Shown here one piece after another: positions 1,874 through 16,910 of a stretch of DNA of 64,000 nucleotides; within the stretch, counting starts at the first letter, position 1, and each line of letters starts with the position of its first letter. Below the pieces are notes generated by a model that was not told the origin of the DNA, made no database searches, and saw nothing but the letters and a program-made list of their open reading frames with translations. This DNA is from Candidatus Saccharimonadia bacterium (GTDB taxonomy: Bacteria; Patescibacteriota; SICC01), in assembly GCA_025449535.1 (NCBI GenBank), contig JANWJF010000001.1, positions 677,136 through 741,135 of the forward strand. Reading direction: 5' to 3'. The position numbers were made by a program, and so were the translations under genes.

Positions 1874-2014
1874 CCACATTCCGTCCACAAGGGGGACAAC
1901 GGCGGCTTGTATAGTGAAAGTGCGACTATCCGTCGTGCCGCGTTTCTACCCGAAACGCTCCCACTCGTCCACGGCATCACTGCCGTGCGTTTCCAAACAG
2001 GAGGAGGAAGGAAA

Positions 2015-2422
2015 GTGGCGACAGCTACCGCTGTAAAAAATGCCACCGCGCCATCCGGTCCGACGGTAGCCCCGGAGACCGCTGGCAGACGGGCAGTACG
2101 AATGCCATCACCCACGGCGCCGCAGCACATGCAGGCCTTGGCCCGCGCGAACCGCGTCCGGCTGGCCCGGGCGGAGCTCAAGCGCTCCATCGCCCGCGGT
2201 GACGCCGATGCGGCTGACGTCATCCGGGAGTGTCCCTGGGAGACCGAGACCATGACGCTGGCCGAGCTGCTCACCAGCCAACGTCGCTGGGGCCGTACCC
2301 GCGCCCGCAAGTTCCTGCTGGGCCTGGCGCTCAGCGAGAACAAGCGGCTCGGCACGCTCACGTCCCGCCAACGCGCCCTGATCAGCACCGAGCTTTCCAA
2401 CAGGAGCTCCGTGCTCGTCTGA
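2015..2422 (+). CDS. integration host factor mIHF-like DNA-binding protein, copy 1
   Basis: C-terminal region resembles actinobacterial mIHF (RARAELKR…TLAELL…GLG.RQR); GTG start after a strong aggaggaggaagga ribosome-binding site; alternative in-frame ATG at 2102. Confidence 0.55.
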   Translation: MATATAVKNATAPSGPTVAPETAGRRAVRMPSPTAPQHMQALARANRVRLARAELKRSIARGDADAADVIRECPWETETMTLAELLTSQRRWGRTRARKFLLGLALSENKRLGTLTSRQRALISTELSNRSSVLV

Positions 2423-2663
2423 GCACTCGAACAACGGCGGCCGGTCGGTCATCAACACGACCCCGGCCGCCCGCGTTCACCTCCTCCTGCTCACACATCT
2501 CGTATCCTTGCTTGCCGATTTACGGCCCGCTTTCGTTTTGCTACCGTTGGAATACGGAACCGCTGAAAACACACGGCGGCTTTCTTTTTGTCCGCGATTC
2601 GCTCTTGATCGGATTGCGTGTCTCACAATCAGGTCAGGAGAAGACGAACGAAGGGAGCAATGG

Positions 2664-3011
2664 ATGAGCCCCGCAGTTGCCGAAGCACCCTCAAGAACCA
2701 AGCTGGGGATTCCGGACCGGTCGCTGGACCAGCGCATGGACGCGCTGAAACATGCCAACGACATCCGGACCGCCCGAGCCAAACTCAAGAAGGACCTCAA
2801 AGCGAGAAAAGCGAGCATCCATGAGTTGCTGCTCGACCCGCCCGAGCACACGCTGACCATGAAGGTCTTCGATCTGCTGCTCGCAGTCCCGAAGTACGGG
2901 CGGATCAAGACCAACCGGGTGCTCAACCAATGCCGGATCTCGCCCTCCAAGACACTCGGCGGACTCTCGGAGCGGCAGCGCCTGGAGCTGGTCAACTATC
3001 TCCGCCGGTAG
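2664..3011 (+). CDS. integration host factor mIHF-like DNA-binding protein, copy 2 (tandem paralog)
   Basis: Same domain architecture as 2015..2422 (ARAKLKKDL…GGLSERQRLEL); ATG at 2664 with a GAAGGGA ribosome-binding site. Confidence 0.55.
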   Translation: MSPAVAEAPSRTKLGIPDRSLDQRMDALKHANDIRTARAKLKKDLKARKASIHELLLDPPEHTLTMKVFDLLLAVPKYGRIKTNRVLNQCRISPSKTLGGLSERQRLELVNYLRR

Positions 3012-3187
3012 GTCCGCCGATGTCCGTGCACGGAGCGGCCGGCCTGGTCAAACTGCGACCCCGCCGGCCGCTCCCCAGCACACCCTCCTGACCTGATTTC
3101 CTGAATACCCTCGTGTCACGCGGGTCGGGTTTCGATATCACACGACTCGCGATTCATTCGCAAGTCGACCCCGAAGCCAGTCGCGTC

Positions 3188-3221
3188 ATACACGTTCGAA
3201 ACCACGGTTTCGAACGTGTAT
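3188..3221. repeat. perfect palindrome with 16-bp arms and a 2-nt spacer (ATACACGTTCGAAACC ac GGTTTCGAACGTGTAT)
   Basis: Read directly from the sequence; lies between convergent genes and at the high-GC/low-GC boundary. Confidence 0.8.
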
Positions 3222-3228
3222 ACAGTCT

Positions 3229-3262
3229 GTGGAGTTGAGCGGGCGTCTTTCGAACCCCGCCT
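3229..3262. repeat. degenerate copy of the tRNA-Ala 3' end (putative att-like direct repeat bounding the islet)
   Basis: gtggagttgagcgggc…tcgaacc…gc matches the plus-strand image of the tRNA-Ala 3' end at 5218-5250 (gtggagctaagcgggctcgaaccgc), 14/16 identical in the first block. Confidence 0.5.
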
Positions 3263-3291
3263 TCAGGCAGAACCTGGCCAAGCTCCTAAGG

Positions 3292-3843
3292 CTAATCCGG
3301 CAGACTCGTTTTTAAATCGTTGAGGAAATCTGCGAGAGATACTATCCGGCAGTTGTACTGCCCAGTGTCTACTGCTTTGAAATCTTTGAGATTAGTGGTT
3401 ACAAGTACGTCACAGCCGAGACGTTCTGCAAGCGAGAAAATGGAAGCATCTGCTTGGCGTTGGTTACGATTCAACCACTGGCGGCTATCCAGTGGTGGTT
3501 TTCCTTGACGCTCGCGCTCCTCGTTGTGTGTGGAGAATGCTGCTTGAGTATCAGCCACTTCACGGCGAATCTCTGAATAGCCGTTTCCTCCTGCGAGTAT
3601 ATCTGGGCCGCCAATAGCTGAGACACCAATTGTGAAGTAACGAGTGTCGTCTTCTGTAAAGCGCTGCTGTAGCAACGTCCAATTACTTTGCCCCGATTCG
3701 GTAAGACGACTCTCGTCAAACTCATCGAGCACTGCACTGACGAGTATGTAATCGTATCCCTCAGGGCTACTGAGGATCGCTTTAGTCATGTGTTGATCCT
3801 GGCAAGCGTCGATTAGGGCGTTAGTGTCAAAAGCGATTAGCAT
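3292..3843 (-). CDS. PIN-domain protein (VapC-like nuclease toxin candidate), ~183 aa
   Basis: N-terminal IAFDTNALID acidic motif and C-terminal GCDVLVTTNLKDF motif typical of PIN domains; ATG at 3843, alternative TTG at 3903; low-GC islet. Confidence 0.6.
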   Translation of the reverse strand: MLIAFDTNALIDACQDQHMTKAILSSPEGYDYILVSAVLDEFDESRLTESGQSNWTLLQQRFTEDDTRYFTIGVSAIGGPDILAGGNGYSEIRREVADTQAAFSTHNEERERQGKPPLDSRQWLNRNQRQADASIFSLAERLGCDVLVTTNLKDFKAVDTGQYNCRIVSLADFLNDLKTSLPD

Positions 3844-3874
3844 CTCGTTTCTAGTATGCTCCAACACAGAGGCG

Positions 3875-4036
3875 CTAACGTTTCTGCTCTCGAACAGCCG
3901 CAAGAACCCTGACTAAATCAGTGAGGTGCCGCTCTCGCTCAACTTTCCGCAAGCTGTATTCGAGCAGCGCCTTCACGTAGCCATCCCAGTCGGGCGGATT
4001 ACGCCGTACGCCCTCGATAGAGAGATCAGAAAGCTT
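3875..4036 (-). CDS. small ORF immediately upstream of the PIN gene (possible antitoxin partner, ~53 aa from a GTG)
   Basis: Position and size fit a type II toxin-antitoxin layout; the N-terminal extension of the 126-aa stop-to-stop ORF looks non-coding (Arg-rich); start uncertain. Confidence 0.2.
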   Translation of the reverse strand, partial: KLSDLSIEGVRRNPPDWDGYVKALLEYSLRKVERERHLTDLVRVLAAVREQKR

Positions 4037-4274
4037 CACGCGCTGCCTCCGGAGCTTCTGTGGCCTCCTTGTTACCACCCAGGTGTATCCGGCAAAGACC
4101 CGAGCGCCGGAATGAAACAGCCGATGCGTGAGCGTGGCACTACAGAAAAGCACCGGTCGTGATCGCCGGCCGGTAGTAAGGGGATAGCGATAGTCAGCCT
4201 GCTGTTTGGAAGCAGTCCCGAACTCGACAGTGCGTGGCTTGCGCGGTCTTCCCACCTACCAACCATACGCTGAC

Positions 4275-4287
4275 GGGGGGGGGGGGG
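4275..4287. repeat. G13 homopolymer tract
   Basis: 13 consecutive G residues ~50 bp upstream of the ATG at 4336, in the divergent intergenic region. Confidence 0.9.
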
Positions 4288-4335
4288 CAATCAAGGTGCC
4301 TTGTAGCGTGTAACTGTCAGTCCTATGCTCGATCT

Positions 4336-5094
4336 ATGAGTAAAGACGATCCGAAGCAAGCCCTAACTACTGTTACAGCAACAGAGCTCAGTGAGCGCAA
4401 GCCAATCACACAGATAATTCACAGGCAGTTAGAAAATCTCCTCCAATACGTTCCAGGTTTACTCGAATCTACAAAGGGCGAGAACGCGACGCGTCTGAGT
4501 CGACTCCTTCAGGCTTTTAATTCTGGTCGATTCATCCAGCAACTTGATAAGGAGCTCGCAGACTTAAGGAAGAGCAGTTCTATTAAGGATGATTATTTCG
4601 TTCAAGAGCAAGCGCTTGAAGGTCTTCAGATTTTATTCGAGTTTATTGACGAGGACTCTCCTGACCTGGTGCGGTTCGAAGCTATGAAACAGGTGTTTCT
4701 AACAATGTGTCAGGAGAAAGACAATTTATCTGACCGAAACGATCCTATTCCTACGCAGTTACTCAGAATCTGCCGAGGACTATCTTCGGGCGAACTGATC
4801 GTCTTGACGACTGCCTATAAATTACGAACCGAAGTAAAAGAAGAACGTAAGCAGGGGAAGCAACCGATTGGGTACTGGCATGAGGAAATTGCGCAGGGCA
4901 GCGGTCTCGTATTTCCAGACCTCGTAGATTTTCACGAAAGAAAACTAATGGACAAGAACCTCATTACTCCGCGGTACCAAAATGACGACCTTATTTATTA
5001 CGGAGCGAAGAATCGTTTAACTGACCTAGGTGAAACACTTTGCGAGTTCATTGGCGAGCTTGATCCCCGCCACCCAAATCCTTTAGCTAAGTGA
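4336..5094 (+). CDS. hypothetical protein, 252 aa, carried on the low-GC islet
   Basis: Long ORF at ~40-45% GC with clear coding periodicity; no recognisable motif. Confidence 0.5.
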   Translation: MSKDDPKQALTTVTATELSERKPITQIIHRQLENLLQYVPGLLESTKGENATRLSRLLQAFNSGRFIQQLDKELADLRKSSSIKDDYFVQEQALEGLQILFEFIDEDSPDLVRFEAMKQVFLTMCQEKDNLSDRNDPIPTQLLRICRGLSSGELIVLTTAYKLRTEVKEERKQGKQPIGYWHEEIAQGSGLVFPDLVDFHERKLMDKNLITPRYQNDDLIYYGAKNRLTDLGETLCEFIGELDPRHPNPLAK

Positions 5095-5218
5095 TCAGTT
5101 TTTGATTTGACGACTGTTCAAGGGTTCGACAAAGGCCCTTTAACTAGTATTAATGGGACAAGAATCGAAACGCCGTAACTGCGGTATTTAATGAATTGTT
5201 CGAGAAACGTTTTGTCTG

Positions 5219-5291
5219 TGGAGCTAAGCGGGCTCGAACCGCTGACCTCCTGCATGCCATGCAGGCGCTCTACCAACTGAGCTATAGCCCC
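5219..5291 (-). tRNA. tRNA-Ala (anticodon GGC)
   Basis: Cloverleaf read from the reverse complement: GGGGCTA acceptor stem, anticodon loop AUGGCAU, T-arm GGTTCGAGCC; CCA not encoded. Confidence 0.9.
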
Positions 5292-5357
5292 AAGTGCATT
5301 TCTTATCCTAGCATCGGCCTCCGCTCTTTCTGTAGGCCATCTCGGCGCCTGCCGGCA

Positions 5358-5390
5358 GGCGGACACCACGATGCCAACTGAGCTATAGCC
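5358..5390 (-). pseudogene. truncated 5' fragment of tRNA-Ala (GGCTATAGCTCAGTTGG) followed by the shared junction motif CATCGTGGTGTCCGCC
   Basis: 17-nt exact copy of tRNA-Ala positions 3-19 lying ~85 nt upstream of the intact gene; the rest does not fold as a tRNA. Confidence 0.5.
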
Positions 5391-5925
5391 TCGCGCGTAA
5401 GAGTATACCGAAGAAAAAAGTTCGACCCGGACATGTCGCGTGAAAGCACACATTCGGGTCGAAGGAAGCCTGGCCCCGCCGCAGCTGGGAATCCACTTGG
5501 CAGTAGAGTGCCGCGGCGGGGCTGGCAAGCGCGTCCGGAGGATCCCTTGACCAGGGACATGTCGATCGCGCAAGTTTCGTGGGTCGTCTATCGGACAGGC
5601 CAAGTGGCTAAAGACGGTTTACAAACCGTCCTCTCCTTGGTGCCAGAGGACGTCCAGCCGGACCCACGCTGTTCGATCTCCAGCAGATGACGCGGCCTAC
5701 CAGCAGACAGGGAGGGATGGCTCGCGTAAATTCACCGCCAAAGAGAACAAGTCTGGTAAGGTGTTGGCAAAAGCCTTACCTTAGTAAAGCCGTTTTTCAT
5801 CATTGCCGCAACCATGTCGACGCGTGATAAGATTGAAGTGATGCATACCGTGAACCGAAACCGCTTTTTCTTTCCCACCTCCGGGCGGTCTTTGGCATGA
5901 GTTAATCACGAACGCATCCGTACGA

Positions 5926-5949
5926 GCCGCCCACCGGGCGGCGTTTTTG
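5926..5949 (+). terminator. intrinsic terminator or attenuator hairpin (GCCGCCC acc GGGCGGC GTTTTT) in the leader of the 5981 operon
   Basis: GC stem followed by a T-tract, 30 nt upstream of the ribosome-binding site and ATG at 5981. Confidence 0.55.
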
Positions 5950-5980
5950 TGAATCAACTAACCAAGGAAAGGAGACCATC

Positions 5981-14851: not shown

Positions 14852-15574
14852 ATGGACCTGCTTCTTGTATTTATTGGGGGCTTCTTGGCGGCCTTATTTG
14901 GATCTATGGCTGGGGGCGGTGCTGCTTTCTTTGGTCTTTATGCGCTGCTTTTCTTAGGACTACCGCTTAATGCTGCAATTGCCACGAACAGTTTTGGAAG
15001 TCTCGGGTTTTTCATGACTTCAATTAGGAACTTCTTTAATCAAGGGCTTGTTAACAAGAGCATCATTATTACGCTATTGGCTCTTCAAGGAATAGGTGTC
15101 GCAATCGGAACATTTCTACTTATCCAATTAAGCGGCCTGGCGATTAAAGTCATCGTTACACTAATTATCGCTACGGCATTTTTGTTATTAGCATTTCAAC
15201 GAGGCCAGAACCATTCAGGTAAGGCTAATCCATTATGGAAACCCGTGTACTTTTTTTATGCGCTGTATTCAGGTTTAATCGGGACCGGATCAGGAGCAAT
15301 CAGAACATTTTGCCTCATTAGACTAAGGAAACTTCCTGCCTTACAAGCCGTCGCGAACGGTTTTGTGGCTACATTTCCCTTTGCTTTTTTATCAACTGGC
15401 GCGTTGTTATATGCAGGACTAGTAGACATTAGGCTAGGAGTCATGCTTCTGGCGGGTAATTTGTTAGGAGCCCATATTGGATCCAAAATTGCTATCAGAA
15501 AAGGTAATGATTTTGTGCGCCAGATGGTTTTGGTTTTTATGGTCATAACATTGATAGTGGTATGGACGTTGTAG
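14852..15574 (+). CDS. TSUP/TauE-SafE-family membrane transporter (DUF81), on a low-GC single-gene insert
   Basis: Polytopic membrane protein with a GGGAAFFG motif; GC ~42% against ~65% in the flanks. Confidence 0.7.
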   Translation: MDLLLVFIGGFLAALFGSMAGGGAAFFGLYALLFLGLPLNAAIATNSFGSLGFFMTSIRNFFNQGLVNKSIIITLLALQGIGVAIGTFLLIQLSGLAIKVIVTLIIATAFLLLAFQRGQNHSGKANPLWKPVYFFYALYSGLIGTGSGAIRTFCLIRLRKLPALQAVANGFVATFPFAFLSTGALLYAGLVDIRLGVMLLAGNLLGAHIGSKIAIRKGNDFVRQMVLVFMVITLIVVWTL

Positions 15575-16814: not shown

Positions 16815-16910
16815 GGAGGAGTGGCAGAGCGGTTGAATGCAGCGGCCTCTAAAGCCGTCAGTTCCCCGCCGGGGAACTTCCCACCAAGGGTTCGAATCCC
16901 TTCTCCTCCG
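16815..16910 (+). tRNA. type-II (long variable arm) tRNA with anticodon CUA; Ser-like identity (G73 discriminator, GGAGGAG acceptor stem); predicted amber-suppressor tRNA-Ser(CUA), or a pseudogene
   Basis: Manual fold: acceptor GGAGGAG/CTCCTCC (an 8th C-G pair is possible), U8, 3-bp D stem with an AGCGG…GG loop, anticodon stem GCGGC/GCCGU, loop CUCUAAA (34-36 = CUA, A37 A38), ~27-nt variable arm with a GTTCCCC/GGGGAAC stem, T-arm AAGGG-TTCGAAT-CCCTT; one base away from a Ser-CGA anticodon loop. Confidence 0.55.

Follow-up and report, generated by a model that had tools for sequence, protein, structure and literature searches.

A low-GC islet at the 3' end of tRNA-Ala and an adjoining mIHF module form a probable composite insertion in a Candidatus Saccharimonadia genome

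We analyzed a stretch of 64,000 nucleotides (nt) of contig JANWJF010000001.1 from a Candidatus Saccharimonadia bacterium (hereafter the window), which belongs to a high-GC (guanine plus cytosine) Patescibacteria genome of about 0.8 Mb. Between the gene for TrxB and an intact tRNA-Ala(GGC) gene lie an inner module with two mIHF-type genes (1874-3224) and a low-GC islet of about 2 kb (3225-5218), the outer module of a larger insertion. The islet holds, on the minus strand, a gene for a PIN-like protein of 183 amino acids (aa; 3292-3843) and an open reading frame upstream of it (ORF126; 3875-4255), followed on the plus strand by a gene for a 252-aa protein (4336-5094) and an AT-rich spacer with a GC content of about 0.39 and no recognisable feature (5095-5213). 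The tRNA gene (5219-5291, minus strand; called by ARAGORN and scored at 67.5 bits by Rfam) turns its 3' end towards the islet, which begins at 5218, so that the boundary named in a preliminary description of this DNA is confirmed by both programs. The region between TrxB and the tRNA gene is best explained as a lineage-specific composite insertion, the outer islet of which is a decayed remnant flanked by attachment (att) sites and carries mutually independent cargo genes; we consider this reading probable.

The islet is foreign by composition. Against a window background of about 0.63, the GC content of 300-nt windows falls to 0.44-0.58 at about 3150-5250, and that of positions 3229-5217 (1989 nt) is 0.497, the minimum among all 2-kb windows (mean 0.628, standard deviation (sd) 0.032). 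The tetranucleotide distance of the islet from the window average is 0.54, the top value of the 2-kb windows (mean 0.23, sd 0.055; about 5.6 sd). GC at third codon positions (GC3) is 0.47 and 0.46 in the two islet genes vs. 0.84-0.93 in TrxA, TrxB, DUF6941, NUDIX and LeuRS, so the islet is deviant in each of the windowed-GC, tetranucleotide and codon-position checks. A fall from about 65% to about 45% had been described between 3230 and 5200; the dip is real, but the figure of 45% fits only the 252-aa gene (0.455) and the right spacer (0.39), GC being 0.49 in the PIN-like gene and 0.58 in a 460-nt core (3875-4335). The contigs that bear homologues of the cargo have GC contents of 0.448 (L003) and 0.323 (L084), which fits lower-GC donors for these genes.

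Both ends of the islet carry a version of the 3' segment of the tRNA. The right att-like repeat (5214-5240, minus strand) comprises the T-arm and the acceptor 3' strand of the intact tRNA together with the 5 nt that flank it on the 3' side, and the left one (F2; 3225-3256, minus strand; GTCTGTGGAGTTGAGCGGGCGTCTTTCGAACC) is an imperfect copy of these parts of tRNA-Ala and its flank in which 5 extra nt interrupt the T-loop. The two align as GTCTGTGGAG[TTG/CTA]AGCGGGC[+GTCTT]TCGAACC, with 25 of 27 positions identical and one 5-nt insertion. This local alignment scores 31, compared with a maximum of 24 over 2000 random 300-nt chunks; a 20-mer of the repeat, searched with up to three mismatches, occurs at the left and right repeats only, with 0.00 sites expected. 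The left-end repeat is therefore not explained by chance, and the degenerate copy of the tRNA 3' end that the preliminary description had placed at 3229-3262 holds up in alignment, with its true start at 3225. As the repeat covers the last ~22 nt of the tRNA and extends 5 nt beyond its end, it was copied from this locus and not from another tRNA. An att origin of the left repeat is likely. Its imperfection need not mean great age: had the crossover fallen inside the common GTCTGTGGAG/AGCGGGC core, the divergent part would represent an imperfect tRNA-like arm that belonged to the element itself. A perfect palindrome of 16 bp around a loop of 2 nt (ATACACGTTCGAAACC ac GGTTTCGAACGTGTAT; 3188-3221) adjoins the left repeat on its outer side; it occurs nowhere else in the window and may serve as a terminator or bind a protein.

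Related genomes show the site empty. A LeuRS-based scan retrieved contigs L004 (75% identity) and L005 (78%), and TrxB homologues led to L172 and L173; the last is almost identical to L005, hence three related species were compared (L004, L005/L173 and L172). All have the order TrxA, TrxB, tRNA-Ala(GGC), DUF6941 and NUDIX, with LeuRS as well in L004 and L005, and the proteins of these syntenic genes are 75-93% identical to those of the window. From the TrxB stop to the 3' end of tRNA-Ala there are 10-24 nt in the three relatives vs. 3345 nt in the window, where TrxB stops at 1873. Since the relatives have the TrxB stop directly before the tRNA, the lineage-specific insertion comprises 1874-5218 (3.3 kb) and not the islet alone. 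The empty tRNA-Ala site that the preliminary description proposed to look for in relatives is thus present in three species, but it is larger than the islet and leaves out the mIHF module too. The tRNA sequences pair the window with L005, and L004 with L172; the empty state occurs on both sides of this grouping and so is, most parsimoniously, the ancestral one.

The region could conversely be ancestral and have been deleted in the relatives, or it could be an assembly artefact joined at a 13-nt poly-G tract (4275-4287) between the divergent cargo genes. Two of the four assemblies of this organism (contigs L002 and L182) terminate at that tract, and the comparison covers three related species only. 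However, both flanks of the insertion are the syntenic neighbours found in the relatives, and all four assemblies contain the islet sequence alike, across the tract or up to it; the PIN-like and 252-aa proteins are identical on metagenome contigs of 681-813 kb from the Joint Genome Institute (JGI). Loss would moreover call for independent, near-precise deletions in both tRNA-sequence groups, and a GC3 of 0.46 in a genome with 0.88 is unlike that of an ancestral gene. We regard ancestry or misassembly as extremely improbable, and return to an insertion specific to this lineage.

The inner module (1874-3224, plus strand) has a host-like GC content of 0.57-0.66 and is absent between TrxB and tRNA-Ala from each of the relatives. 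Its second mIHF gene (2664-3011, plus strand) matches the NCBIfam model actino_IHF (NF041260) at 70.2 bits, above the cut-off of 60, and the first (2015-2422, plus strand; 2129-2422 in the JGI call) reaches 46.6 bits with actino_IHF, which is under the cut-off. The two are only 34% identical, and the first would be a diverged paralogue of the second. The second gene shares about 80% protein and 80-83% DNA identity with many genes on contigs of GC 0.66-0.72, the DNA similarity being limited to the coding region. One such contig carries carB, pyrD, an mIHF gene, gmk and coaBC consecutively, which is the usual actinobacterial arrangement. Judging from these relationships, mIHF gene 2 is probably an actinobacterial gene captured by a Patescibacterium; a literature search on mIHF in Saccharibacteria found nothing relevant. 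GC-rich hairpins follow each of the two genes (2429-2478 and 3032-3074), the latter folding at -41 kcal/mol (z -7). The second gene and its hairpin are flanked by a perfect 14-nt inverted repeat (2627-2640/3085-3098), a length reached by none of 300 shuffles, and related 27-nt stretches stand after each mIHF gene (2463-2489 and 3064-3090). The inverted repeat and the related stretches together suggest that about 605 nt form a unit which is cassette-like or arose by duplication.

Composition shifts sharply, and exactly at the left repeat, from the inner module to the islet, which argues that the two arrived separately. The alternative is that the whole block 1874-5218, or 1874-5373 if the present tRNA copy is included, arrived in one step, either as a pre-assembled mosaic or by a non-site-specific insertion, the repeat at 3225-3256 then being an internal relic. 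The relatives lack everything from TrxB to the tRNA, no intermediate that has the mIHF genes but lacks the islet was found, and whole tandem arrays can be transferred (PMC5704250), all of which would agree with a single arrival. So would a further tRNA fragment. Seventeen nt of the 5' part of tRNA-Ala recur without mismatch 101 nt upstream of the intact gene (F1; 5374-5390, minus strand; score 34, null maximum 24), next to a conserved AAAAGTATA box; the same box abuts the tRNA 5' end in L004, so the tRNA appears to have been displaced by 101 nt. The tRNA locus is in any case rearranged further than one simple integration explains. Against a single arrival, GC3 differs between the modules (0.81-0.82 in the genes of the inner one vs. 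0.46-0.47 in the islet). The intact tRNA is near-identical over its whole length to the L005 copy, from which only one compensatory base pair of the anticodon stem sets it apart; this speaks for a native tRNA. Furthermore, the TrxB junction has neither a repeat nor a tRNA remnant (best local score 13, under the null mean). A 10-nt tRNA match within the inner module (2557-2566) scored 20 and was rejected as non-significant. On balance, we find a one-step arrival unlikely.

In keeping with the preliminary description, no integrase remains: no ORF in 1874-5218 matched a recombinase or integrase family in Pfam, NCBIfam or PHROGs. The higher-GC core of the islet (3875-4335) was considered as a possible integrase remnant and rejected, as it gave no recombinase or other family match at E<=1. 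A phage or plasmid origin was likewise not borne out. Against phage and plasmid collections the islet DNA matched at the tRNA only; tblastn of the PIN-like and 252-aa proteins against PLSDB plasmids returned nothing, and nothing came from INPHARED phages, which were searched only with the 252-aa protein and the consensus of its family. Scans of IMG/VR by protein patterns and by the GGPDILAGG motif of the PIN-like protein found nothing at the sensitivity used.

This anatomy corresponds to a known class of element. A cis-mobilizable element (CIME) is an att-flanked element without a recombinase, the absence of an integrase being defining (PMC5704250); tandem accretion at tRNA 3' ends is described by Pavlovic et al. 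(2004), as summarised in PMC5704250; and genomic islands are common in Patescibacteria (PMC12455944). Like CIMEs, the islet sits at a tRNA 3' end, is bounded on either side by a direct repeat that contains the tRNA 3' segment, is foreign in composition, has no integration or transfer genes, stands in tandem with a second foreign module and occupies a site that is empty in relatives. It differs from them in its very small size (2 kb), its imperfect repeat, the lack of a third repeat at the outer junction and the extra 5' tRNA fragment upstream; there is also no cognate integrase-bearing element known for it, and its host is a Patescibacterium. We conclude that the islet is not an autonomous integrative element and that it fits the definition of a CIME.

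In the scenario that we favour, the outer 2 kb (3225-5218) would have been acquired horizontally by site-specific recombination with the 3' end of the tRNA gene, so that the islet would have come to lie between imperfect direct repeats that comprise the T-arm, the acceptor and 5 nt of flank. With the recombinase gone, what remains would be a decayed, CIME-like remnant flanked by att sites, in tandem with an older or separately acquired mIHF module. The cargo would consist of independent accessory genes of defence or addiction type. Judged by their homologues, both cargo genes have kept their full length, and their composition has not shifted toward that of the host, which suggests recent acquisition or selection. 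The site-specific integration and decay proposed earlier thus agree with the anatomy, but the insertion is wider than was described (1874-5218) and the 5' fragment F1 is unexplained by it.

The PIN-like protein begins MLIAFDTNAL, its start (ATG 3843) being set by alignment with its sole distant homologue and supported by another gene call. It has the PIN-type order of beta strands and alpha helices together with an insert of about 60 aa. Among 5.8 billion proteins, the only homologues retrieved were the protein itself and one other (P0002) at 33% identity. A PIN-like fold is the best structural match, obtained with a low-confidence predicted model (predicted local distance difference test (pLDDT) 54). 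With Pfam PIN (PF01850) only the C-terminal 30 aa align, at 13.5 bits (cut-off 23.6; E 0.11); an NCBIfam PIN model reaches 14 bits vs. a cut-off of 170 (E 0.03), and a sequence search of the PDB gave no match. Both members keep D6, E41/E44 and D132, which we infer to be PIN active-site positions, and the motif TxNLKDF; the fourth acidic position is N151, with D154 nearby. The 183-aa protein is probably a PIN-fold protein, and it may act as a metal-dependent ribonuclease effector.

With VapC and other PIN toxins this protein shares an N-terminal motif (hhhhDTNxhI), a C-terminal motif (D..I...AE....D.LVT.N.KDF) and the beta-alpha-beta order of secondary-structure elements. Unlike VapC, it falls below the Pfam and NCBIfam thresholds, carries within its insert the motif FTIGVSxIGGPDILAGG, which is conserved in both members, has an Asn at the fourth acidic position in both, lacks a recognisable or conserved antitoxin and belongs to a family of two known members. 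It is not a recognisable VapC, and the earlier label of a VapC-like PIN-domain gene is best reduced to PIN-like: the PIN fold is the best match, but the sequence scores are below threshold and no antitoxin accompanies it.

ORF126 extends over 126 aa from GTG 4255 (the JGI call retains the last 67 aa only) and has a basic N-terminus (MGRPRKPR). Its GC content is 0.585, it has no clear codon-position GC pattern, and it has neither a family match in Pfam, NCBIfam, PHROGs or PADLOC nor homologues. At the P0002 locus (L003) there is no same-strand upstream ORF and no counterpart of ORF126, the neighbours being a divergent helix-turn-helix gene and a 408-aa protein. The small upstream partner suggested for the PIN gene is hence not borne out by an antitoxin family match, by homologues or by conservation at P0002. 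The 408-aa neighbour (L003 1546-2772, minus strand) ends in a D...ECK motif that resembles, by eye, those of PD-(D/E)xK nucleases; it has no Pfam match.

The 252-aa protein has an N-terminal helical domain and a C-terminal winged helix of MarR/DtxR-like fold, and may be a DNA-binding protein. It has no match in Pfam, NCBIfam, PHROG or PADLOC, PDB sequence searches on the islet proteins gave nothing useful, and none of the three islet ORFs was matched by PADLOC. An exhaustive profile search placed it in a family with at least 603 cluster representatives, most of which have a length of 220-250 aa, so a protein that had been described as lacking any recognisable motif does lack a family model, but belongs to a large family with a helical domain and a winged helix. 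Across this family PADLOC gave scattered single matches only. Eight of 106 relatives weakly match Abi_alpha, with E values down to 6.5e-5. Prophage 6 of Enterococcus faecalis is the source of Abi-alpha (EF2833, PF14337/DUF4393), a single-gene abortive-infection protein (PMC6356687) that resembles the 252-aa protein in size (272 vs. 252 aa), in being mostly helical, in being a solitary gene in mobile or defence neighbourhoods and in the weak matches given by this minority of the family. Unlike Abi-alpha, the 252-aa protein has a C-terminal MarR-like winged helix, and its function can be proposed from fold and neighbourhood only. Neither the protein nor the family consensus matches PF14337; membership was therefore rejected, and the Abi_alpha link is a hint only.

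Among the neighbourhoods of the 252-aa homologues, restriction-modification genes adjoin three of the five informative loci: L084 has a Type IIG restriction enzyme and an island with a TraG-like ATPase, L176 a BsuBI/PstI restriction enzyme, and L179 a Type ISP enzyme, AlpA, a DnaB-like gene and a toxin-antitoxin pair; at L177 the neighbour is a DUF4760 gene. In none of the five was there a PIN neighbour. A 207-aa gene that follows the homologue P0004 was considered as a PIN-like relative and rejected as unrelated; it resembles a membrane protein. The co-occurrence check thus shows that PIN-like and 252-aa homologues do not occur together at the loci examined, which marks the 252-aa gene as an independent gene typical of mobile or defence islands and not as a third component of a PIN system.

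These data also bear on the functional reading offered earlier, in which the islet would encode a VapBC-like toxin-antitoxin or abortive-infection module with ORF126 (or its 67-aa version, ORF67) as antitoxin, the PIN-like protein as toxin and the 252-aa protein as a novel third component. The layout is suggestive of such a module: ORF126 is on the same strand as the PIN-like gene and ends 31 nt ahead of its start, the toxin candidate has a PIN-like best fold, the divergent 252-aa gene with its winged helix could encode a regulator, and the weak Abi_alpha matches lead to a family of abortive-infection proteins. However, the sole homologue of the PIN-like protein has neither an upstream partner nor a neighbour of the 252-aa family, the 252-aa homologues are without PIN neighbours, ORF126 lacks both an antitoxin family match and a clear coding signal, PADLOC came back empty and the family consensus does not match Abi_alpha. 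With no antitoxin and no co-occurrence of the two cargo families, we consider a joint module distinctly unlikely. We propose instead, from fold and neighbourhood only, separate defence or addiction roles for the two cargo genes, which would not then form one toxin-antitoxin or three-component system.

The poly-G tract lies in the 80-nt region between the divergent genes and is the sole homopolymer of at least 8 nt in the window. Its length differs among the four assemblies of the same organism, being 13 in the window, 14 in L001, 15 in L002 and 16 in L182; in L001 it is the only difference over 13.8 kb. On the minus strand the sequence reads TTGCCC, 17 nt (10 C plus GTCAGCG), TATGGT, 6 nt and the GTG at 4255, and on the plus strand, ahead of the 252-aa gene, TTGTAG, 17 nt, TATGCT, 6 nt and ATG, from which promoters may be proposed in the divergent region. 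As the tract on the minus strand falls within the promoter-like spacer between -35 and -10, its length would alter the spacing for the ORF126/PIN-like unit, and slipped-strand length changes may turn this unit on and off.

The phase-variable promoters of Neisseria porA and opc, with a poly-G/C tract in the -35/-10 spacer, are contingency loci of this homopolymeric-tract kind. The islet tract resembles them as a long G/C homopolymer that is unique in the window, differs in length between assemblies and is located in a divergent promoter region inside a promoter-like spacer. It differs from them in that its promoter is a prediction and in that its length differences are possibly sequencing errors. 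Our literature search found no paper tying Saccharibacteria to phase variation and homopolymeric tracts. A bolder reading would make the tract a true slipped-strand switch of a leaderless ORF126/PIN-like unit, the islet a phase-variable defence or addiction module with an undescribed family of PIN-like nucleases, and the mIHF genes a capture from the host that serves recombination at a tRNA hot spot; we hold this combination to be a long shot.

Several observations weigh against the composite-insertion account or against parts of it. The left repeat is short and departs from the right one by two substitutions and the 5-nt insertion, and the 5' tRNA fragment at 5374-5390 is not accounted for by integration at the 3' end. 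Strict tandem accretion predicts a third tRNA remnant at the TrxB junction, and none is there. As no relative was found with the mIHF module but without the islet, two separate events are not demonstrated. The PIN assignment draws on a model of pLDDT 54 and on sub-threshold scores from hidden Markov models. Neither cargo protein is known to the defence library, and neither has relatives in the phage, plasmid and IMG/VR collections, as far as these were searched. At the poly-G tract, a sigma-70 consensus promoter scan gave no sites, and the length differences could be sequencing or assembly errors, two of the four values coming from contig ends.

Other features of the window were also observed. 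Between tRNA-Ala and DUF6941, some 550 nt of non-coding sequence (5391-5950) are conserved in L004 (7702-8205) and L005 (7140-7645), hairpins and a block AGGACGTCCAGnCGGAcCCACGcTG included; this stretch is absent from L172, has no Rfam match and may be an undescribed structured RNA. A tRNA gene of 96 nt at 16815-16910, scored at 58 bits by Rfam, combines a Ser-like D-loop with a long variable arm and a discriminator G, and its anticodon CUA reads the amber codon UAG; ARAGORN called it tRNA-Pyl, and a suppressor tRNA-Ser(CUA) is possible. Despite this CUA tRNA, TAG is the commonest stop of 25 long high-GC3 ORFs (12 TAG, 7 TGA and 6 TAA). Finally, a lone low-GC gene (0.41-0.47) at 14852-15574, which encodes a TauE/SafE-family exporter and stands amid high-GC core genes (SMC, S16 and a KH protein), is a further candidate for an acquired gene.

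The evolutionary reading of the islet in the preliminary description was largely right, with boundaries that prove to be wider, and its functional reading is unsupported. Since small att-flanked remnants at tRNA genes are a well-known route to accessory genes, the islet itself is unsurprising; what gives it value is that its bounds are clean and clear, that three related species show the site empty and that the genome measures about 0.8 Mb. Two protein families without functional annotation also come to notice through it, namely a near-orphan PIN-like protein and a family of more than 600 clusters that combines a helical domain with a winged helix and is repeatedly found next to restriction-modification genes. 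The poly-G tract, the actinobacterial mIHF genes in a Patescibacterium and the tRNA-Ser-like gene with an amber anticodon could reward follow-up more than the islet.

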